64,000 nucleotides of DNA, taken from positions 864,001 to 928,000 of the forward strand of contig OY762492.1 in the NCBI GenBank assembly GCA_963665845.2. Direction: 5' to 3'. Positions 24,009-50,645 of the stretch are shown one piece after another (the stretch's first letter is position 1; each line of letters starts with the position of its first letter). Source of the DNA: Candidatus Poribacteria bacterium (lineage in GTDB: Bacteria > Poribacteria > WGA-4E > GCA-2687025). The notes under the pieces were generated by a model, which did no database searches, was not told the origin of the DNA, and saw only the letters and a list, made by a program, of their open reading frames with translations. The position numbers were made by a program, and so were the translations under genes.

Positions 24009-24065
24009 CGTTCTCCTCCGCCCCCTTAGAATAGCGCCGTTCGAGCGCGAACGGAACCGCTTGAC

Positions 24066-24232
24066 CTGACCTTACGTCTTTAGTTGGGACATGCCGCTGT
24101 GCGAACGCGGACGTTGTCTGCGGCTCCTCTAGATTCCCGCTTACGCGGGAATGACGGTCTGGTTGGCGACGCTTTTCCCCATGAATAAAGGCTTTGGTCA
24201 TTTAGATGTCCCAACTTTACGCATGAGGTCAG
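24066..24232 (-). mobile_element. MITE (167 bp) with imperfect ~27-bp TIRs, internal CGTC palindrome and 6-bp target duplication
   Basis: Ends are CTGACCTTACGTCTTTAGTTGGGACAT and ATGTCCCAACTTTACGCATGAGGTCAG. CTTGAC on both flanks (24060-24065, 24233-24238). Homologous to 32860-33048 and 36381-36570. Confidence 0.85.
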
Positions 24233-24233
24233 C

Positions 24234-24262
24234 TTGACGCCGAGCGCAAAGTTCGGCATGAT
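24234..24262 (+). promoter_or_regulatory. Putative sigma-70 promoter of the arylsulfatase
   Basis: TTGACG-17 nt-CATGAT, about 40 nt before the ATG. Confidence 0.55.
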
Positions 24263-25701: not shown

Positions 25702-26058
25702 AAGATCACGGCGCGGCGCTCGCCGTTCTGTTGGAGGCGAAAGCGTCCAGCCCGCCGACCCATGCGGTCATTCCCGCGTAAGCGGGAATCTTGAAGCCTC
25801 TATCGCCTCCAAATACGGTTTCCTGCAACGCGGTCGCTTTCGGGAACTGTCCAAGATTACGGCGATGCGCTCGCCGTTCTGTTGGAGGCGAAGGCGTCCA
25901 GTCCGCCGACCCAGGCTGTCATTCCCGCGTAAGCGGGAATCTTGAAGCGTCTATTGCCTCCAAAGACGGTTTCCTGCAACGCTGCCGCTTTCGGGAGCTG
26001 TCCAAGATTACGGCGATGCGCTCGCCGTTCTGTTGGAGGCGAAGGCGTCCAGTCCGCC
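25702..26058. repeat. 151-bp tandem repeat (about 2.4 units) containing the dsbD 3' end and the CGTC palindrome
   Basis: Units start at 25702, 25853 and 26004. Palindromes at 25767-25790 and 25918-25941. Confidence 0.92.
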
Positions 26059-28819: not shown

Positions 28820-29998
28820 ATGTTTGCAAGACTGCGCGTTCTCAATCTCGCCGTTGCGGCGGTTGCGGCGGTCGCGATGACCGGCTGCGATCAACTGGTC
28901 AAAACGCTGGATCCAGACGCCGGCTCCAGCGACGCCTTGAAAATCGGCGTCATCCAGCCCAGCGGATATTTCGTCAGCTTTGCGCGCGGAGCAGAGTTGG
29001 CGCGTATGGAGCTGAACGCCGAAGGCGGCGTCTTAGGACGCCAGATCGAGTTCATCTACCGCGACAACCAGAAAGACTTGGTGTTTCCAACGCCCGAAAG
29101 CACGATTCAGGCGGCTGAAGAGCTGATTCAGGATGAAAAAGTGTTCGCTCTTTTAGGACCGACATTTTCAAGCAACGCGGTTCATCTGGCAAATATCGCT
29201 CAAGAGAGCCAGACGCCGATCTTGGTGAACGCCACCTCCGGCGCCGTGTCCGCTTCAAGCGAGTACATTTTTCTGGTCGCCGGGACGACAGGCTCTCAAG
29301 GCGACGGTCTCGCTAAGTTTGCGTTGTCGCCCGACAATTTGGGCGCCATGACAGCGGCGGCGCTTGTTCAAGAGGACGATCTCTACTCGGAGGTTCTGGC
29401 GGACGCCTTCGCCGCAAAGTTTGAGGAGCTGGGGGGAAGCGTCTTGGCGCGTGAAACCTATGAGGTCGGCAGCGCAACATTCGCCGGTCCGATTGAGCGG
29501 GCGTTGGCAGGCAACCCCGATGTCGTGCTGATGGCTGGCTTCGCCCCGGATGTTCCCCTCGCCATCAACGAGGCGCGGGAAGCGGGCTATGAAGGCGTCT
29601 TTCTGGGCGGAACCGGCTGGAACGACCCTGACCAGTTTTTCCATGCCCTGGAGGACAACTCGGTCTTGAACGGCTCCTTCTTCGCATCGAATTTCTCGGC
29701 GGACGCGCCGGGCGACAGCGTCCAGCGTTTTGTCGCGGGCTACCAAGCCGCGTACGGCACAACGCCCCCGGGTCAATCCTCAAAAGGGTACGACGCCATG
29801 AAACTGCTGGCGCAGGCGGTTGAAGCGGCGGGCAAGCTGGACGCGCCCGCTGTCCGAGACGCGCTTGCGGCGACGACCAATTATGAAGGCGCCACCGCGA
29901 TTGTACGCTATAATAAGGATCGGCAGCCTCTGAAAGAGATTGTCATTATGACAATTCAGGACGGAGAATCTAAATTTTACCAGTTACTTGCGCCTTAA
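28820..29998 (+). CDS. LivJ/LivK-like ABC substrate-binding lipoprotein (copy 1)
   Basis: MTGC lipobox, LKIGVIQPS, GGVLGRQIE, ALLGPTFSS and YDAMKLLAQA motifs. Confidence 0.9.
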   Translation: MFARLRVLNLAVAAVAAVAMTGCDQLVKTLDPDAGSSDALKIGVIQPSGYFVSFARGAELARMELNAEGGVLGRQIEFIYRDNQKDLVFPTPESTIQAAEELIQDEKVFALLGPTFSSNAVHLANIAQESQTPILVNATSGAVSASSEYIFLVAGTTGSQGDGLAKFALSPDNLGAMTAAALVQEDDLYSEVLADAFAAKFEELGGSVLARETYEVGSATFAGPIERALAGNPDVVLMAGFAPDVPLAINEAREAGYEGVFLGGTGWNDPDQFFHALEDNSVLNGSFFASNFSADAPGDSVQRFVAGYQAAYGTTPPGQSSKGYDAMKLLAQAVEAAGKLDAPAVRDALAATTNYEGATAIVRYNKDRQPLKEIVIMTIQDGESKFYQLLAP

Positions 29999-30029
29999 AC
30001 GAAACCGCAAGACAACGAAAGGAACGAGC

Positions 30030-31460
30030 ATGAACGCAAAAATGCGGACGCTCATCGCAACGATCTCATCTCTCTTCCTCGCCGCGGCATTGACCAGCTG
30101 CGACGACATCGGAAACATCCTTGATCCTACCACGGACGCCCCTGCTCTGAAAATCGGCGTCATCCAGCCCTCTCAGTACTACATCAGCTTCTTTCAGGGG
30201 GCTGAACTTGCGCGGCAGGAGATCAACGCCGGCGGCGGCATCCTCGGCAGAAAGATTGAGTTCGTCGCGCGCGACAACCAAGGAACGAACATCTGGCCGA
30301 CGCCCGATAAAACGATTGAGGCGGCGCATGACCTGATCAACAATGAAGGCGTCGCGGCGATTCTTGGTCCGATTTTCTCCACCAACTCCATTGCGCTCGG
30401 AAACGCCCTGACCGAAGCGGGCGTCGCAACGCCGATGCTGCCGGCGGCAACATCGCCTGTTGTCACACAGACGCATTCGCATTTTGTGCTGACCGCGGCG
30501 AACAACCATCTCCACGCGACGGCTCTTGCCAATTTTGCGGCGTCGGAATTGGGCGTCGGCACGGTCGGCATTTCCCTGCAGGCAGGCGACGCGTACTCGG
30601 AAGTTGTGACGCGCGCGTTTGTGGACGCGACGCGCGGCGCGGGCGGCAGTGTCGGCTCTATCGCAAGCTACGAGGTTGGGTCGCGCGACTTTACGGCGCA
30701 GATTCAGGTGCTGATGGACGACAACCCAGACGCCATTTTCCTTCCCAGCTTCGCGCCTGAAGTTCCGCACTTCATTCAACAGGCGCGCGCGGCGGGCTAC
30801 GAAGGCCTCTTCATCGGCGCAGACGGATGGGACGACGCGGCGCAGTTCTACGGGACGCTGGACGACAACTCCGCGCTCAACGGCTCCTACTACACCACCA
30901 ACTACTTCCCCGGCGGAGACGATCCGATGGCGAACGATTTCGCCGCCGCTTACATGAGCGCCTACGGCATCATCGCCGACGGCATTGCCGCCAACGGATA
31001 CGACGCCATGCGGCTGCTCGCCGAAGCGATTGAAACCGCCGGCGGAGGCGGAACGCCCGAAGGAGACGGAGACGGCGCGGACGATCCCGTGGTCGGCGAG
31101 CCGGGCGACGGATCGGACGGCAACGGCGTTGATCTTCCGACGGTGTCCGTAGAGGTTCCCGGCGCCGACGCCATTCTCGATGCCCTGGTCGCGATTCAGG
31201 GCTACCGCGGCGCGACCGCCATCTCCCATTTCGATGAACATCGAATGGCTGTCAAAGACCTTGTCGTCTTGAAGATTGCAAACGGCATGCCCATGTTCCA
31301 CTCCATTTGGACAAATATGGAGGGCGGCGGAATCGACGACGGCGGAAACGGAGACGGCGGAGACAGCGGCGGAAACAGCGGAAACGGCGGAAACGGCGGA
31401 GGAGGAGACGACGGCGGCGGAGACGACGGCACAACCGCCATCGACAACCCCAACGGATAA
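30030..31460 (+). CDS. LivJ/LivK-like binding lipoprotein (copy 2) with Gly/Asp-rich insert and tail
   Basis: LTSC lipobox and the same motifs as copy 1. Low-complexity G/D/N segments. Confidence 0.9.
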   Translation: MNAKMRTLIATISSLFLAAALTSCDDIGNILDPTTDAPALKIGVIQPSQYYISFFQGAELARQEINAGGGILGRKIEFVARDNQGTNIWPTPDKTIEAAHDLINNEGVAAILGPIFSTNSIALGNALTEAGVATPMLPAATSPVVTQTHSHFVLTAANNHLHATALANFAASELGVGTVGISLQAGDAYSEVVTRAFVDATRGAGGSVGSIASYEVGSRDFTAQIQVLMDDNPDAIFLPSFAPEVPHFIQQARAAGYEGLFIGADGWDDAAQFYGTLDDNSALNGSYYTTNYFPGGDDPMANDFAAAYMSAYGIIADGIAANGYDAMRLLAEAIETAGGGGTPEGDGDGADDPVVGEPGDGSDGNGVDLPTVSVEVPGADAILDALVAIQGYRGATAISHFDEHRMAVKDLVVLKIANGMPMFHSIWTNMEGGGIDDGGNGDGGDSGGNSGNGGNGGGGDDGGGDDGTTAIDNPNG

Positions 31461-31487
31461 ATCGAAGGGGTCCGTCTAAACCATTCC

Positions 31488-31531
31488 AAGAGAGGCGGTA
31501 CGGCTGCTTCGCCGCTCCGCCTCTCTTTTTT
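31488..31531 (+). terminator. Intrinsic terminator after binding protein 2
   Basis: AAGAGAGGCGG..CGGC-TGCTTC-GCCG..CCGCCTCTC followed by T6. Confidence 0.75.
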
Positions 31532-31598
31532 CTAATCGACCGCTTTACATTCGGAAACCTTGATCGACGAACGCCTGTCTCCAAAGAAGGAAATGCGC

Positions 31599-32840
31599 AT
31601 GAGAACTACGACGCAACGCAGAGCCGTATCAAAACGGCGGACATTCGCCGCAACGTTGGCGGCTGTCTTTCTCGCCGCGGGGCTGACAAGCTGCGACAAC
31701 CTCCTAGATGTTCTGGAACCTGACGTCACAGAACCCGCCCCCGCTCTGAAGATCGGCGTCATTCAACCGTCCCAGTTCTTCATCAGTTTCCTTCGCGGCG
31801 CTGAAATGGCGCGGCAAGAATTGAACGCCGGCGACGGAGCCGCCGGCATGCAGATTGAGTTCATCCTGCGCGACAACCAGGGATCGGACATCTTCCCGAC
31901 CGCAGAAAAAACGATTGAAGCCGCTTATGAGCTGATCAATAACGAAGGCGTTACCGCGATTCTGGGACCCATCTTATCGACCAACTCGGTCGCCCTCGGA
32001 AACGCGCTGACCGAAGCGGGCGTCAAAATTCCGATGTTGCCGGGATCCGTCTCCGCCACGGTGCCGCAGTCGTACTCGCATTATGTACTGACGGTTTCCA
32101 ACAACCTCGTACAAGCGAACATTACGGCAAACTTCGCCTTTACAGAGCTGGGAATCGGCTCGATCGGCATCGCCTCGCTGGCGCCGGACGAATTCTCGCG
32201 CGTCTTGACCGAAAGATTTGCGCGCGATTATGAAGCGCTTGGAGGAACAATTACGGCAGCCGTCGAATACGCGATCGGCGCAACCGACTTCGCATCGCAA
32301 ATTGAGACGCTCATGGACAGCGAACCTGAAGCGATTCTCCTTGCCAGCTTTGCGCCTGAAGTCCCGCTCTTTATTGAGCAGGCGCGCGCGATGGGGTATG
32401 AAGGGCAATTCATCGGGACGGACGGCTGGGACGATTTTGCGACGTTCTACAACGTCCTTGACGACAATTCCGTGATGGACGGCTCCTACTACACCGCCAA
32501 CTTCTTCCCTGGCAGCGGCGATCCGACCGCCGACGCCTTCGCCGACGCCTTCATGAGCGCATACGGCATCATCGCTGACAGCACAGCGGCGGCAGGTTAC
32601 GACTCCATGAAGCTGCTGGCTCAAGCCATCGAAACGGCGAAAGACGGCATGGACGGCGAGGCGATGCCGGACGCGGACGCCATCCTTGCGGCTCTGCTCG
32701 CGACGAAAGACTACCGAGGCGCGACGGCGATTTCGCATTTCGATGAAAGCCGCTCCCCCGTCAAAGAGTACATCATCTTAACGATAGAAAACGGGGCGCC
32801 GGCGTTCCATAGAACATGGCAAGATTCAAGAATCGATTGA
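31599..32840 (+). CDS. LivJ/LivK-like binding lipoprotein (copy 3)
   Basis: LTSC lipobox, LKIGVIQPS, DNQG, FAPEVP and GATAISHFDE. Start is 31593 or 31599. Confidence 0.9.
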   Translation: MRTTTQRRAVSKRRTFAATLAAVFLAAGLTSCDNLLDVLEPDVTEPAPALKIGVIQPSQFFISFLRGAEMARQELNAGDGAAGMQIEFILRDNQGSDIFPTAEKTIEAAYELINNEGVTAILGPILSTNSVALGNALTEAGVKIPMLPGSVSATVPQSYSHYVLTVSNNLVQANITANFAFTELGIGSIGIASLAPDEFSRVLTERFARDYEALGGTITAAVEYAIGATDFASQIETLMDSEPEAILLASFAPEVPLFIEQARAMGYEGQFIGTDGWDDFATFYNVLDDNSVMDGSYYTANFFPGSGDPTADAFADAFMSAYGIIADSTAAAGYDSMKLLAQAIETAKDGMDGEAMPDADAILAALLATKDYRGATAISHFDESRSPVKEYIILTIENGAPAFHRTWQDSRID

Positions 32841-32859
32841 AGGCGCAGACGCGGCGGAG

Positions 32860-33048
32860 CTGACCTCATGCCTAAAGTTGGGACATTTGAATAGACGATC
32901 GCTCTATTCATGGGAAAAAGGCGCCGCCAACCAAACGGTCCCCCGCTTCCGCGAGGACATGCATTCCCGCGTAAGCGGGAATCTAGAGGCGCCGCAGAAA
33001 CCGTCCGCGTCCGCCAGGCGGAATGTCCCAACTAAGACGTAAGGTCAG
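32860..33048 (+). mobile_element. MITE (189 bp) with TIRs and internal inverted palindrome doublet
   Basis: CTGACCTCATGCCTAAAGTTGGGACAT...ATGTCCCAACTAAGACGTAAGGTCAG. No clear TSD retained. Confidence 0.85.
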
Positions 33049-33128
33049 AGGGAAGGCGTTGACTGTTTCGCCTTGCATGCGCCCGCAACTTGATTTACAA
33101 TGGCGGTATGAAAACAAGGAGAAAACGC

Positions 33129-34364
33129 ATGAGCGCAGCAACTGACCGGAAATTCAAATCGCTGCGGCGAATATTCACGGCAATGTTCGCATCTCTGTTT
33201 CTAATTGCGGCTTTGACAGGCTGCGACGATCTGATGTCGGTCCTGGATCCTAAACCGACGCCCGGCGAGACGCTCAAGATCGGCGTCATTCAGCCCTCTC
33301 AATACTACAGCAGTTTTGCGCGGGGGGCGGAGATCGCGCGGATGGAGCTCAACGCTGCCGGCGGCGTTCTTGGGATGCCGGTCGAGTTTGTCGCGCGCGA
33401 CAATCAGGGGACCGATATTTTCCCCACGACCGAAAGTACGATTGGCGCGGCGCATGATCTGATCGTAAACGAGAACGTTGCTGCGATTCTCGGTCCCATC
33501 TTTTCAACGAACTCGGTGGCGCTCGGCGCCGTATTGACCGACTCGGGCATCGATATTCCGATTTTGCCGGCGGCTACCTCCGCTTCGGTGCCGCATTCGT
33601 ACTCCCATTTTGTGCTGGCGGGCGCCAATAACCTGCATCAAGCAAACGCGCTGGCGAATTTTGCCTTGACAGACCTGGGCATTCGTTCGGTCGGCATCGC
33701 GCTGCTTGCCGGCGACGAATACACGCGCGTCACGACAGAAGGTTTCACCAGCGACTTTGAAGCGGGCGGCGGAGAGATCGTCGCCGCCGCCTCCTACGAC
33801 AGCGGAACCGCCGACTTCACAGCGCAAATCAACGCCGTGCTGGCGGGCGAGCCTGAAGCGATCTTTCTCCCCAGCTTCCCTCCAGAAGTGCCGCTGTTTC
33901 TTGAGCAGGCGCGCGCGATGGGTTACGAAGGCGTCTTCATCGGCGCCGACGGATGGGACGACGTCGCCGCATTTTACAGCGTCCTGGATGACAACTCGCT
34001 GATGGACGGATCCTACTACATCGCCAACTTCTTTCCCGGCGGCGACGATCCAGTAGCAAACGCCTTTGCCGACGCGTTCATGAATGCCTACAATGTCCTG
34101 TCCGACAGCTCTGGAGCGGCTGGTTACGACAGCATGAAGCTTCTCGCGCATGCCATCGAAACGGCTGCGGGCGGTATGGACGGCGACAGCAAAATAGCGC
34201 TGCCGGATGCGGACGCCATTCTTGCAGCCTTGGTTGATGTGCAAGATTACCGCGGCGCCACTGCGATCTCGCATTTCGATGAAAATCGCCTCGCGGTCAA
34301 AGACTACATCATCCTGACCATTCAGGACGGCATGCCGGCGTTCCATAAAGCATGGACAGACTAA
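33129..34364 (+). CDS. LivJ/LivK-like binding lipoprotein (copy 4)
   Basis: AGGAG RBS and LTGC lipobox. Highly similar to copies 2 and 3. Confidence 0.9.
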   Translation: MSAATDRKFKSLRRIFTAMFASLFLIAALTGCDDLMSVLDPKPTPGETLKIGVIQPSQYYSSFARGAEIARMELNAAGGVLGMPVEFVARDNQGTDIFPTTESTIGAAHDLIVNENVAAILGPIFSTNSVALGAVLTDSGIDIPILPAATSASVPHSYSHFVLAGANNLHQANALANFALTDLGIRSVGIALLAGDEYTRVTTEGFTSDFEAGGGEIVAAASYDSGTADFTAQINAVLAGEPEAIFLPSFPPEVPLFLEQARAMGYEGVFIGADGWDDVAAFYSVLDDNSLMDGSYYIANFFPGGDDPVANAFADAFMNAYNVLSDSSGAAGYDSMKLLAHAIETAAGGMDGDSKIALPDADAILAALVDVQDYRGATAISHFDENRLAVKDYIILTIQDGMPAFHKAWTD

Positions 34365-34447
34365 GCGGCGGCATGGGAGACAGCGCGGACAACGAATAGT
34401 TTCGCCGTCTGTCTCGCGCAACATAAAAGAACGGAGACAACGAAAAG

Positions 34448-35608
34448 ATGCGCGCTTTTACAGCGGTTACGGTTGCGTTGACAGCGGCGGCGCTGATCGG
34501 ATGCGGCGATATAAGCCAGTTTCTAGAACCGGACGACAAGGTCGAACCGATACGCATCGGCGTCATTCAACCGAGCGGCTATTTTACGGATGTGCTGCGC
34601 GGAGCGGAGCTGGCGCGAACCCTGCTGAATGAGAGCGGCGGCGTTCTCGGCAGACCCGTTCAGTTTGTCATCAAGGACAACCAGGGAGACGACCCGTTTC
34701 CGACGCCGATGCGCACGATTCAGGTCGGCAAGGAGCTGATTGACGAAGGCGTCTTCGCCGTCTTAGGTCCCATCCTTTCAACGAATTCATACGCCTTCGG
34801 CGAGGCGGTCCGCGGCAACCCGATCTTGACGCTGGCGGCGTCCAGTTCGCCCGTTGTAACGGAAGCGAACCCGTATATGTTCATCGTCGTTGCGACGAAC
34901 ACCTTAGAAGCGCAGGCGGTCGCCGACTTCGCCAAAGAGGAGCTGGGCGTCGACAACATCTCCGTTCTTTTTCAAAAGGACGATCTGTTCTCGATCATCG
35001 CGTCCGAGGCGTTTGCGGAGAGTTATGAGGCTGTCGGCGGCGCGGTTGTCTATGAAGGGCAGTATGAGGTCGGCAGCCTAGAGTTTGGCGGCATGTTAGA
35101 GGCGGCGCTGGCGGACAACCCTGGCGCGCTTTTTCTGCCCAGCTTCGCGCCTGAAGTTCCGCGCTTGATGCGTCAGGCGCGCGCGATGGGCTTTCAAGGC
35201 GTTTTTCTTGGTTTAGAAGGATGGGAAGGCATCGAAAAAAGCGACGCGGTGGACGACGCCTCGCTGCTGGACGGCGCGTTCTACGCCTCCAACTTCTCGC
35301 CGGAAACGCCCGGCGCCGGCGCCGAAGCGTTTATTTCCGCATACATGGCGATGTACGGCGTCCTGCCGAACGGCGACGCCGCCCGAAGCTACGACGCCAT
35401 GAACATACTGGCGCAAGCCATCGAGACGGTCGGCGAGCTGGACATGGAAGCGGTAAGAGACGCGGTCTGGGCGACGGAGAATTTCAACGGCGCCACCTTC
35501 ACCGCCCGCTTTGATGAAAACCGGCGCCCCGTCAAAGACCTTGTGATCTTGCGTTTTCAGGACGGCGCCCCGCGTTTTCACCGCCTTATCAAAGCCGCGC
35601 AGCCGTAA
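34448..35608 (+). CDS. LivJ/LivK-like binding lipoprotein (copy 5)
   Basis: LIGC lipobox, IRIGVIQPS, DNQG, LGPILSTN and YDAMNILAQAIE motifs. Confidence 0.9.
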   Translation: MRAFTAVTVALTAAALIGCGDISQFLEPDDKVEPIRIGVIQPSGYFTDVLRGAELARTLLNESGGVLGRPVQFVIKDNQGDDPFPTPMRTIQVGKELIDEGVFAVLGPILSTNSYAFGEAVRGNPILTLAASSSPVVTEANPYMFIVVATNTLEAQAVADFAKEELGVDNISVLFQKDDLFSIIASEAFAESYEAVGGAVVYEGQYEVGSLEFGGMLEAALADNPGALFLPSFAPEVPRLMRQARAMGFQGVFLGLEGWEGIEKSDAVDDASLLDGAFYASNFSPETPGAGAEAFISAYMAMYGVLPNGDAARSYDAMNILAQAIETVGELDMEAVRDAVWATENFNGATFTARFDENRRPVKDLVILRFQDGAPRFHRLIKAAQP

Positions 35609-45181: not shown

Positions 45182-45275
45182 GCGGGGAAGCGGGGGCGAT
45201 CTGGTTGGCGGAGCCTTTTTCGCTGGTCATCGCGGTTCTTTCGTCACGACGCCCCTACTTTACGCATGAGGTCAG
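45182..45275 (-). repeat. Degenerate MITE left-arm remnant
   Basis: GGAAGCGGGGGCGATCTGGTTGGCGG..CTTTTTC and terminal CCCTACTTTACGCATGAGGTCAG. Confidence 0.7.
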
Positions 45276-45284
45276 AATTGACGT

Positions 45285-45313
45285 TTGACAAATGCCGCTA
45301 AACGACGCATGAT
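45285..45313 (+). promoter_or_regulatory. Putative sigma-70 promoter of recA
   Basis: TTGACA-17 nt-CATGAT. Confidence 0.65.
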
Positions 45314-45343: not shown

Positions 45344-46564
45344 ATGGCGCGCAAGAAACGAACGATCATCGAGCCTCCGACAGCGATTTCGGACGCGGAG
45401 CAGCGGGTTGAAGCGATCGACAACACCATATCGCAGATCGAAAAGCGGTACGGCAAGGGCGCGATCATGCGCCTGACCGACGAAAACATAGAGCCGATAG
45501 AGGTGGTGCCGACCGGCGCGCTGTCTCTCGATCTCGCCCTCGGCGTCGGCGGCGTTCCCCGCGGCCGCGTGGTGGAGATCTACGGACCCGAATCGTCCGG
45601 CAAGACGACCCTATGCCTGCATATTCTGGCGGAGGCGCAAAAAAGCGGCGGCACCGCGGCCTTTATTGACGCGGAGCATGCCTTCGACAGATTCTGGGCG
45701 AAGCGGGTCGGAGTTGACCTGGACTCGCTGCTGTTTTCGCAGCCGGACGACGCCGAGCAGTCGCTAGAGATCGTCGAGACGCTGGTGCGAAGCGGCGCTC
45801 TCGATTGCATTGTGGTTGACTCTGTGGCGGCGCTCGCCCCGCGCGCCGAGCTGGCGGGCGAAATGGGCGACTCGCATGTCGGTCTTGTGCCGCGCTTGAT
45901 GTCGCAGGCGCTGCGCAAACTGACCGCCGTCATCAGCAAATCGAAAACCTGCGTCATCTTTGTGAATCAGGTTCGGGAAAAGATCGGGATTCTCTTCGGC
46001 AACCCTGAAACGACGCCCGGCGGGCGCGCGTTGAAGTTTGCCGCTTCCGTCCGCATGGAGATACGCCGCGGCGAACCGATCAAAGAAGGCTCCGAAACGA
46101 TCGGCTACCGCACCAGCGTGCGCGTCATCAAAAACAAGGTCGCCCCGCCCTACACGCAGGCGGAATTCGACATGGAGTTTGCGGGCGGAATCCCCAAGGA
46201 AGGCTCCATTTTGGATGTGGCGGTGGAATACGATCTCGTTCAAAAGTCCGGCTCCTGGTACTCCTACAACGGCGAGCGCCTTGGACAGGGGCGCGAAAAC
46301 GCGAAGGCGTTTCTGCGGGGGAACCCGGAGGCGGCCGCGGCGATTGAAGCGAAGGCGCGCGAGGTGATCACAGCCGATCTGGTCGGCGCAAAGGCGGAAG
46401 AAAAAGCGCGCGCCGAATTTGAGGAACGGCTCAACACGCAGCCCGAACCCGTGAATCAGACGCCTCAAGAGGCGGAGCCTGCCCAGGAACCTGACGAGGA
46501 CATCAGCGACATCGATGATCTGGTCAACTCCATCGCCGAAACGCAGGCAGAAACGGACGAATGA
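45344..46564 (+). CDS. recA: Recombinase A
   Basis: [25 protein letters not shown] and [14 protein letters not shown] motifs. Long acidic C-terminal tail. Confidence 0.98.
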
Positions 46565-46567
46565 AAA

Positions 46568-46770
46568 CTTAAGAAGACCAGCCGGCGTCCATTCTACCCA
46601 ACGTCATTCCCGCGCAAGCGGGAATCCAGAGGCGTCGCAGACAACATCTGCGTTCGCTGTCAGGTATGTCCCAACTCTAAGGGTAAGCTCTGGGAACCTT
46701 ATGCGCCGCAGACGCATGCCGACACGTCCCAACAGATGTAAAGTCAGCTTAAGAAGACTGCCCGGCGTCC
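46568..46770. repeat. Palindrome/MITE remnant bracketed by a 23-bp direct repeat of the infC 3' end
   Basis: CTTAAGAAGAC-NNN-CCGGCGTCC at 46568-46590 and 46748-46770. Palindrome at 46603-46626. TIR-like GTCCCAAC...GTAAAGTCAG ends at 46747. Confidence 0.75.
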
Positions 46771-47321
46771 GATTTGGGGCTTAGCTGAAGAGACAACTGG
46801 CGCCCTTCCATTTTGGGCGCCTGCTCAATCTCGGCGGCGTCTTCCAGAGATTCGGCAAACTTCATCAGAAGCTCCCGCCCCAGGTCAGGATGCACAATCT
46901 GCCCATGACGGCGGAAGAAGCTGACCGTAACGCGCACCTTGTTTCCCTGCCTCAGAAACTGCTCGGCGTGTCGAATGCGGTAGCTGATGTCATGCCGCGC
47001 CATGTTCTGTTTGAGCCGTATCTCTTTGATTTCAATGCGCTTCTGCGATTTGCGCGCCTGTTTCGCCTTCCGCTCCTGCTCATACTGGTATTTTCCGTAG
47101 TTCAGGATTCGGCAGACGGGCGGCTTTGCGTTCGGCGCCACCTCAACCAGGTCAAGCCCTTTTTCTTTTGCAATCTCAAGAGCCTGGCGCGGACGCATGA
47201 TGCCGAGCTGCGTTCCGTCCTCGTCGATCACGCGAACCTCGTACGCCTGGATGTGTTCATTTGTGCGGGCGCGCGCGTCCCGTTTTGAGCTGGACGAGCG
47301 CTGCGAACGGCTTCTTCTCAT
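46749..47321 (-). CDS. infC: Translation initiation factor IF-3
   Basis: NEHI...VRVIDEDG.QLG, LDLVEVAPNAKPPVCRI and KEIRL motifs. Confidence 0.95.
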   Translation of the reverse strand: MRRSRSQRSSSSKRDARARTNEHIQAYEVRVIDEDGTQLGIMRPRQALEIAKEKGLDLVEVAPNAKPPVCRILNYGKYQYEQERKAKQARKSQKRIEIKEIRLKQNMARHDISYRIRHAEQFLRQGNKVRVTVSFFRRHGQIVHPDLGRELLMKFAESLEDAAEIEQAPKMEGRQLSLQLSPKSDAGQSS

Positions 47322-49390: not shown

Positions 49391-49467
49391 TGGTGGGCGG
49401 TAGTGGACTTGAACCACTGGCCTCCTGCATGTCAAGCAGACGCTCTAGCCAGCTGAGCTAACCGCCC
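49391..49467 (-). tRNA. tRNA-Val(GAC)
   Basis: GGGCGGTTAGCTCAGCTGG...TCTGCTT-GAC-ATGCAGG...GGTTCAAGTCC...CCGCCCACCA. Confidence 0.95.
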
Positions 49468-49472
49468 AAGTA

Positions 49473-49547
49473 TGGAGGCGACGGTCGGACTCGAACCGAC
49501 GAATAGGAGATTTGCAGTCTCCCGCCTTACCGCTTGGCTACGTCGCC
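49473..49547 (-). tRNA. tRNA-Cys(GCA)
   Basis: GGCGACGTAGCCAAGCGGT...GGAGACT-GCA-AATCTCC...GGTTCGAGTCC...GTCGCCTCCA. Confidence 0.95.
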
Positions 49548-49565
49548 GTGAACCGGCAAAAAAGT

Positions 49566-49640
49566 TGGGGCGGGCGACGCGATTTGAACGCGCGACATCA
49601 ACCTTGGCAAGGTTGTGCTCTACCCCTGAGCTACGCCCGC
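49566..49640 (-). tRNA. tRNA-Gly(GCC)
   Basis: GCGGGCGTAGCTCAGGGG...CAACCTT-GCC-AAGGTTG...GTTCAAATC...CGCCCGCCCCA. Confidence 0.95.
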
Positions 49641-49838: not shown

Positions 49839-50645
49839 CTATTCGCTTACAATCATCGTCTGAACGCCCGCCGATTCCGCCCGCTTCTCTAAATTCGGCG
49901 GAATGGAACGGCCGGCAACCGCCGCAATGACCGGAACCCCATACAAGACGCGCAGTACGGCAGCCGATTCTTTTGCCCGGTCAATATCTTCCGACCCGAT
50001 CGTGTACGACGATTCCAGCGCGACCCATATCTCCGAGCCGTTTTGCTTCCGCCGCGCCCGCAGGATAAAGTCGGTCTTCTCAATACGGACGTATTGGCGA
50101 TTCGTGATGCGCCCTTCGTTGAGCGCCTCGTCAATCGTGTCCTCCATGTCTTCATCCATCACATCTACGCGACTGGTCATCACTCGCGCCTTGCGCAGCC
50201 CGAATCGTTGTGATGCGATCGATTTGATGGAACGAGCCAGCGATAATTCTAGAGAGACGCCTTTCACAACCCCCATGTCAATGTTAATTTGCTTTATCTG
50301 AGTCTTGATATCCGCGATGTCCGCCTCCATCCGATCAAGGCGCTCATCTCGCGCAACCCCTTGCTCGATGAGGTCGGCAAGAACCGCCTTGATCTCCGCA
50401 ATGTCCGCCTTCATTACGGCAATGTCGTTCTCGATATTGGCGATCCGCTCATCCCGCTTTGCCCCTTGCGCCTTGAGCTCCGCGATGTCCGCCTTCATCG
50501 AGACGATATCCGCCTCCATCCTGGCAATCCTCTCATCCCGCTCTGCCCCCTTCGCTTTGATCTCCTCGATGTCCGCTTTCATCGAGACGATGTCCGCCTC
50601 TATGTTCGAGAGACGTTGATGGATTTTATCCTCTTGCCCGTTCAT
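49839..50645 (-). CDS. Coiled-coil repeat protein with C-terminal PD-(D/E)XK-like domain
   Basis: 28-aa repeats (EADIVSMKADI...GA.RDERI) and C-terminal TDFILRA...WVALESS...EDIDRA. Confidence 0.7.
   Translation of the reverse strand: MNGQEDKIHQRLSNIEADIVSMKADIEEIKAKGAERDERIARMEADIVSMKADIAELKAQGAKRDERIANIENDIAVMKADIAEIKAVLADLIEQGVARDERLDRMEADIADIKTQIKQINIDMGVVKGVSLELSLARSIKSIASQRFGLRKARVMTSRVDVMDEDMEDTIDEALNEGRITNRQYVRIEKTDFILRARRKQNGSEIWVALESSYTIGSEDIDRAKESAAVLRVLYGVPVIAAVAGRSIPPNLEKRAESAGVQTMIVSE

Follow-up and report, generated by a model that had tools for sequence, protein, structure and literature searches.

The 23-bp direct repeat that lies between recA and infC is a true target duplication at a site that was ancestrally empty, and the 157-bp insert between its two copies is a piece of the NTS-hairpin/MITE mosaic of this genome (G000). 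We favor, at a probability of about 0.55, the reading that the right joint was made by a transposase and the left joint by repair that microhomology primed close to an NTS cut by Ssn, and that the duplication does not reflect a staggered transposase cut. The locus belongs to a window of 64,000 nt, whose coordinates are used below unless a contig (C1) is named, and is organized as follows.

45344..46564, + strand: recA, intact (TIGR02012 in NCBIfam, 508 bits); its stop codon lies 3 bp ahead of the left 23-mer
46568..46590, + strand: left 23-bp copy, non-coding; its last 6 bases are also spacer-module sequence (microhomology)
46591..46601, + strand: 11-bp piece of the inter-NTS spacer module, present at 11 other places in the genome
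46602..46629, + strand: NTS/SRM hairpin (dRS3, CGTC-type REP), an exact match to the NTS consensus, with palindrome at 46603-46626 and 8-bp stem at 46606-46625
46630..46692, + strand: first MITE-A right half, whose degenerate 27-bp terminal repeat spans 46666-46692; 86% identical to the best paralogue over 91 bp
46693..46747, + strand: second, shortened right half with an NTS-tail-like start; its terminal repeat, 46724-46747, lacks 3 bp and directly abuts the right 23-mer
46748..46770, + strand: right 23-bp copy, containing the last codons and stop of infC
46749..47321, - strand: infC (IF-3; TIGR00168 in NCBIfam), intact, with a C-terminal length equal to that in G001

The two genes form a convergent pair, and the infC stop codon (TAA at 46749-46751, minus strand) is located inside the right 23-mer. 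The first-pass annotation had claimed that the infC tail recurs 180 bp away, with a palindrome and a TIR-like end in between, and this was confirmed: the copies are identical at 20 of 23 positions at a spacing of 180 bp, no third copy with up to three mismatches exists across the 3.98-Mb genome, and the TIR-like end stops at 46747, adjoining the right repeat. Both stop codons are intact, so that the event was harmless for recA and infC themselves. No sigma-70 promoter or intrinsic terminator was found in 46400-46950, and an Rfam search of the window returned only three tRNAs. Elsewhere in the window, these three tRNA genes are located upstream of thrS (49394-49640), five tandem paralogous genes, 60-78% alike in DNA and partly separated by MITE copies, occupy 28820-35608, and an ORF at 50299-50636 contains 84-bp and 21-bp internal repeats and shows weak SMC-like coiled-coil matches.

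The insert is not a complete MITE with both ends and a normal TSD: it has no left end, two right halves and a 23-bp duplication. Its fold as a whole is weak (z of -2.0; 7 of 200 shuffles were equally good). The right junction coincides with the end of a MITE terminal repeat (offset 0), and the left junction is 11 nt upstream of the NTS, or 17 nt when the microhomology is included. This microhomology amounts to 6-7 bases; the motif GCGTCC is present at the join in 6 of the 11 other spacer copies, 7 of which follow another NTS.

A target duplication predicts that relatives without the insert have a single copy of the 23-mer and not both. This is what we found in G001, a genome of the same genus whose infC is 94% identical: it has one copy, the region is exactly 180 bp shorter, and the order is recA stop, 4 bp, infC stop. 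Also, all four runs examined (X1, X2, X6 and X7, from up to four studies) had a contig that joined across the insert with a net skip of 180 bp. The five empty alleles (G001, X1, X2, X6 and X7) differ in sequence. At repeat positions 16 and 18, both G000 copies have bases that are absent from G001, so that the two stem from a single sequence and the duplication is younger than the split between G000 and G001. The event is nevertheless old, given the three differences in 23 bp and an identity of only 86% to the best paralogue. The repeat score of this 23-mer is exactly 14, in the weakest class, and the empty site serves as independent proof.

The recA-infC site has been struck or reworked more than once. 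Besides its empty allele, run X2 contained a contig spanning the left junction (46498-46613), that is, a filled allele outside G000. A different filled allele was present at 46744-46762 in runs X2-X5 (four samples of one study); its right junction is in module sequence, without a full terminal repeat. In a more distant contig, a MITE right end lies directly against the infC stop. The site at the infC stop may be an insertion hotspot. A metagenome scan for further infC-tail alleles gave no matches, and a genome scan gave one (L195), with the same junction.

Long duplications of this kind form a class in G000. Direct repeats of unique sequence that score at least 14 bracket 21 of 823 repeat clusters, compared with 0.33 expected from shuffled flank pairs. 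A wider scan yielded 39 candidates, 13 of which were removed by hand as partly module sequence, coding repeat or plain tandem; the remaining 26 curated events have duplications of 16-76 bp around inserts of 50-310 bp of non-coding repeat. G000 and G001 were further compared by a gene-anchored approach, which replaced unanchored BLAST chaining (swamped by repeat-protein paralogues), found a usable orthologue for 1029 of 2693 gene pairs and covers 2.58 Mb of the approximately 3.6 Mb of G001, which leaves many of the events with no counterpart to compare. It revealed 36 clean insertions specific to G000, one of which, with a 113-bp overlap, was set aside. Among the remaining 35, seven duplicated 18-35 bp and 14 duplicated at most 4 bp; the five with both MITE-A ends had duplication scores of 6, 6, 9, 9 and 12. 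Flanking direct repeats are thus found at other element copies, as the first-pass annotation expected. In a replicate analysis of G001, 5 of 165 NTS scored at least 14, mostly weak or tandem cases, so that the class is much less evident there.

The suggestion that such events favor the tails of convergent genes was not upheld: this geometry was seen in 6 of 26 events, compared with 149 of 833 repeat-bearing gaps, and four events duplicate a gene start. In total, 11 of the 26 overlap a gene end and 12 neither a start nor an end, with one event doing both. The kinship proposed with a second case in the window, at dsbD, held for the NTS, which is common to both, and broke down for the junction type, as the dsbD case (event 10) has no MITE end at either junction.

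25702..26058, + strand: dsbD-tail array of three 55-bp copies with a 151-bp period and an NTS in each unit

Events 2, 10, 19 and 21 are tandem arrays of the type X-P-X-P-X, where X is the flank copy and P the insert; loci with this arrangement are 25702-26058 in the window and C1 460704, 1972516 and 2089163. They hold one more X than P, which is consistent with amplification of a single X-P-X. In G001, the dsbD site contains a single X, and its short insert differs.

The right halves in the insert belong to MITE-A, for which we detected 145 paired ends, mostly 165-190 bp, with an NTS in the middle and no coding capacity. Exact TSDs of 5-9 bp flank 54 of the 145 (26 of 6 bp and 19 of 7 bp), compared with approximately 0.45 by shuffling. 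An 18-bp duplication occurs once, at the sole intact MITE-A with an exact flanking duplication of this length (190 bp, C1:2355950-2356139). A second family, MITE-B (about 145-190 bp), has ends unrelated to those of MITE-A, a central NTS and an 8-bp TSD (exact in 14 of 35). Representative elements and the autonomous partner of MITE-A are as follows.

24066..24232, - strand: complete 167-bp MITE-A (comparison), with an ordinary 6-bp TSD at 24060-24065 and 24233-24238
C1:561322-562588 (L035): autonomous MITE-A partner, a DDE element of 1267 bp that shares its ends with MITE-A
C1 71929-72077 and 1792725-1792869: MITE-B examples in G000

MITE-A has all the features of a MITE (TIRs, a short TSD, no coding sequence and an autonomous partner with the same ends). 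The transposase of the partner matched PF01609 at 51 bits, above the cut-off, and Y(2)R(3)E(6)K is visible in its translation. It stayed below all curated NCBIfam cut-offs; the best match was NF033591 (77.7 bits, cut-off 152), and that to the IS1634 model was weak (44 bits, cut-off 100). It is the only autonomous partner, has an apparent frameshift in an A-run near the C-terminus, and lacks a TSD. Among 123 pattern matches in the species genomes, none was a relative of this IS4-like transposase. For MITE-B, no partner transposase was found in G000; IS1595-family elements were rejected as candidates because their ends differ, and Mutator-type transposases were not found in G000 or G001 (both about 90% complete). 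IS1595-family sequences gave 15 matches on C1 of G000 (e.g., 1688785, 2603477 and 3171580) and none in G001; wherever the ends were readable, they were inserted inside a C-rich palindromic repeat, which looks like a recent, repeat-targeted expansion.

Since intact MITE-A copies duplicate 6-7 bp and MITE-B copies 8 bp, the 23-mer is not a normal MITE footprint. This bears on the first-pass proposal that one repeat system makes unusually long target duplications: the long duplication, the empty site and the involvement of the repeat system stand. The parallel drawn with the CTTGAC duplication at 24233 fails, as that is the ordinary 6-bp TSD listed above; similarly, a CTT start is not a target signature, being present in 8 of 454 MITE-A flanks.

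The flanks of the MITEs showed another regularity. TTGAC starts 9-10 nt outward of MITE-A ends in 69 of 454 flanks in G000 and in 28 of 196 in G001. For the 88 MITE-A flanks with TTGAC at 8-12 nt, a -10-like hexamer was present at the right spacing in 58 (24% for other intergenic TTGAC), and 80 faced a next gene in the same direction. At several empty sites of G001 the TTGAC hexamer is host sequence, and at the recA promoter (45257-45290) the two genomes have MITE-A ends at nearly the same position, a left-end remnant in G000 and a right end in G001. These observations suggest that insertion by the IS4-like transposase is guided by promoters. For MITE-B, a TTGAC peak occurs at 15 nt outward (14 of 210), which resembles the promoter spacing of TnGBS and ISKra4; in the sections covered of PMC3942029, fixed-distance insertion at 15-17 bp from promoters is described for TnGBS, ISLre2 and ISKra4. 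We found no literature on fixed-distance promoter insertion by an IS4-like element, and no TTGAC-type promoter at the infC site.

The hairpin at 46602-46629 matches the 28-nt NTS consensus given in the part of PMC11893778 covered, including the oriented 5' tag. C1 of G000 contains 174 strict and 802 relaxed copies; only nine of the latter lie inside called genes (simple gene caller), i.e., nearly all are intergenic. The SsnA nuclease of Neisseria acts on single-stranded DNA, which it cuts a few nucleotides upstream of the NTS (about 3 nt, from oligo lengths; PMC11893778, in the sections covered). The hairpin corresponds to the dRS3/CGTC-1 repeat, which has no dedicated transposase according to the covered sections of PMC3733652, and how hundreds of CGTC/NTS copies arise without one is left open in the covered parts of PMC3733652 and PMC11893778. 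Among 41 genomes, more than 100 NTS were found only in G000 (659) and G001 (154), both of which have a GIY-YIG gene; as kin, they are not independent evidence for the co-occurrence of NTS and ssn. G004 has a weak partial match to this gene and no NTS.

C1:2298872-2299180 (L179, G000): ssnA-like GIY-YIG gene, 102 aa, PF01541 at 55.3 bits (cut-off 22.6), with no other Pfam family

The 102-aa protein agrees with the single-domain architecture of Ssn (about 95-105 aa), and its gene lies between NTS copies, forward ones upstream and reverse ones downstream, both here and in G001 (L180). The NTS hairpin in the insert is a predicted target of this small, putative single-strand nuclease. The ssn loci of the two genomes differ: the intact G001 copy (L180) is downstream of a gene that we take to be atpC-like from our own reading of the sequence, at a position occupied in G000 by repeats only; a broken G001 copy (L188) adjoins the gene that flanks the G000 copy. 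The ssn cassette thus appears to move or to be copied between NTS arrays. No long flanking duplication was detected at the one NTS-ssn-NTS cassette scanned (L180). Replichore or strand bias of the NTS with replication was not seen genome-wide, where the origin from GC skew is uncertain; among curated events the figure was 15 of 22. RAYT (PF01797) was not found in G000 (90% complete) or G001 (91%); nor, at about 90% completeness, were DUF559 and GxxExxY nucleases or a reverse transcriptase (PF00078), and target-primed retroposition was rejected on the last of these grounds.

The junctions of the 26 events follow measurable rules. In 10 of them (6 type A and 4 type B), one junction, never both, is at most 4 nt away from a MITE end that faces outward, compared with 0.53 expected for random insert positions; this count may be slightly inflated, as in at least one type-A case (event 32) a MITE seems to have entered one of the repeat copies afterwards. 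The other 16 have no MITE end at either junction. Microhomology with donor modules averaged 3.92 nt for the best donor, compared with 2.06 nt in 1000 permutations (maximum 2.92), and reached at least 5 nt at 13 of 40 junctions (3.4 expected). Where the NTS could be oriented (22 events), its distance to the 5' junction was shorter than that to the 3' junction in 19 (median 22 vs 80 nt, p=0.0009), and orphan MITE right ends, downstream of the NTS, outnumbered left ends (134 vs 47, with 56 unclassified); both asymmetries are to be read with the donor structure, which is itself asymmetric.

These rules fit the combination of transposase and repair that we favor for the 23-bp duplication. An IS4-like transposase would have linked the right end of the MITE with the infC stop. 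The left part of the element would have suffered a break immediately upstream of the NTS, in single-stranded DNA and with the resident SsnA-type nuclease as the likely agent. A free chromosomal 3' end could then have copied 23 bases of the infC tail before copying switched, via the shared GCGTCC, onto the spacer ahead of the NTS. This may have occurred during one-ended insertion, or later, in a complete resident MITE from which the left half had gone missing, with the short TSD serving to prime repair; the two routes would give an identical product. The roles of both enzymes are likely ones, predicted from sequence features. One-ended retroviral integration and short-patch illegitimate recombination offer analogies. 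The spread of duplication lengths (16-76 bp) fits repair and not a fixed stagger. The left junction, 11-17 nt upstream of the NTS, is beyond the cut position of Neisseria SsnA, so resection or another cut position must be assumed. Further facts that count against this reading are the 14 of 35 clean insertions that duplicate at most 4 bp, the different filled allele in X2-X5, the NTS showing no strand bias with replication, and the scanned ssn cassette (L180) with no long duplication around it; the removal of 13 of the 39 candidates by hand also weighs on the counts.

A transposase is not needed in general, since 16 of the 26 long duplications lack a MITE end at the junctions. The main alternative, which is less likely for the infC site, dispenses with it: both joints would have arisen by microhomology, through a switch of template or because a single-stranded fragment carrying an NTS annealed where a fork or break, Ssn-stimulated or generic, was present, and the MITE end would be incidental. 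The genome-wide excess of junction microhomology speaks for such patching, as do the dsbD array, which has only an NTS, and the AG at the right junction that is shared with some empty alleles. Against it, junctions at a terminal repeat are approximately 20-fold enriched and the offset here is 0; besides, other empty alleles read AA at the right junction, where microhomology is therefore weak. Pure microhomology patching probably accounts for many of the events that have no MITE end, dsbD among them.

An ordinary MITE insertion followed by tandem duplication through slippage or unequal crossover, and by a deletion that left one insert by chance, is improbable. Tandem X-P-X-P-X arrays and nested and composite MITEs do exist, and the event is old, with 3 differences in 23 bp. 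However, the deletion would have to end exactly at the boundary of the empty site, seven of the 35 clean insertions match their empty sites within 2 bp and hold one insert only, and the arrays always contain one X more than P, as if an X-P-X had been amplified. Still less probable is the strict form of the first-pass proposal, in which the transposase itself makes long, variable TSDs in the manner of IS1549 and IS1634, whose repeats are of 8-514 bp in the summary covered in PMC2266710. The 190-bp MITE-A with the 18-bp duplication and the weak IS1634-model match agree with it; it is largely refuted by the TSD table, in which intact elements with long repeats account for just 1 of 145 paired ends, by the fact that no long event has a terminal repeat at both junctions, and by the same one-sided pattern in two unrelated terminal-repeat families. 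That both 23-mers are ancestral or due to chance, with the insert lost from relatives by recombination between the copies, is very improbable despite the filled left junction in X2, given five differing empty alleles, bases shared by the two copies and absent from G001, and a null expectation of 0.33 in 823 clusters.

Known systems resemble the present one in part, as judged from the covered sections of the papers cited. The NTS/SRM and Ssn/SsnA repeats (Chenal et al. 2025, PMC11893778; Di Nocera et al. 2013, PMC3733652) share the exact consensus, hundreds of intergenic copies, a small GIY-YIG gene between inverted NTS arrays and the absence of a detected RAYT; target duplications are not described in the sections covered, which leave the spread of the repeats open, whereas here elements of two MITE families carry the NTS in their middle, and the insertions that it marks come with duplications of 16-76 bp. 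Insertions of RM genes with long target duplications (Furuta et al. 2010, PMC2853133) are similar in their long, variable, locus-unique duplication relative to an empty site, for which a nuclease-made break is proposed. They differ in kilobase cargo, in duplications of 45 to >400 bp in the tables covered and in the lack of any other mobile element; here non-coding repeat of 50-310 bp forms the cargo, and the joint often has one MITE end. The recA-infC locus shows a long locus-unique repeat and a single-copy empty site, with its 23 bp below the 30-bp threshold of that paper.

Elements of the IS4 family (De Palmenaer et al. 2008, PMC2266710) have a DDE transposase with Y(2)R(3)E(6)K, 5'-CT ends and a non-autonomous derivative with a short TSD, as does MITE-A with its partner; the MITE-A TSD is 6-7 bp, compared with 7-13 bp tabulated for IS4 subgroups in the part covered. 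Unlike those of IS1549 and IS1634 as summarized there, the long duplications here occur almost only on one-ended remnants and not on intact copies. REPIN clusters and BIMEs (Bertels and Rainey 2011, PMC3116915, sections covered) are likewise palindromic, mosaic intergenic clusters, with tandem units that include flank, as at dsbD. REPINs are inverted doublets associated with a RAYT, and we rejected this identity for the present hairpins, which are single and oriented, with no RAYT found in G000 or G001. Finally, IS ends at duplication and deletion junctions (PMC11708052, sections covered) are at a rearrangement joint without a normal TSD, with break repair proposed; whole IS and tens of kilobases are involved there, and half a MITE and 23 bp here. 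Literature searches, with most subscription journals outside their scope, found nothing linking NTS/dRS3 or Ssn to long target duplications and microhomology, and nothing relevant on SPDIR or one-ended transposition with microhomology beyond PMC11893778. The system is thus made of known parts (Ssn targets, MITE ends and long duplications) in an undescribed combination.

The recA-infC locus provides a polarized before-and-after case, and the genome provides 26 events with measurable junction rules (NTS distance, microhomology and one MITE end), whereby the spread of NTS repeats becomes a directly testable question. As a possible but rather tentative model, NTS may spread by a two-enzyme relay, in which MITEs of unrelated DDE transposases capture a central NTS and deliver it, Ssn cuts beside it, and repair by microhomology then removes the half upstream, leaving long variable duplications and assembling mosaics. 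If this model is true, these scars would record directly, and for the first time, the action of Ssn on the chromosome that encodes it, and they would explain a repeat expansion driven by a nuclease without ligase activity.
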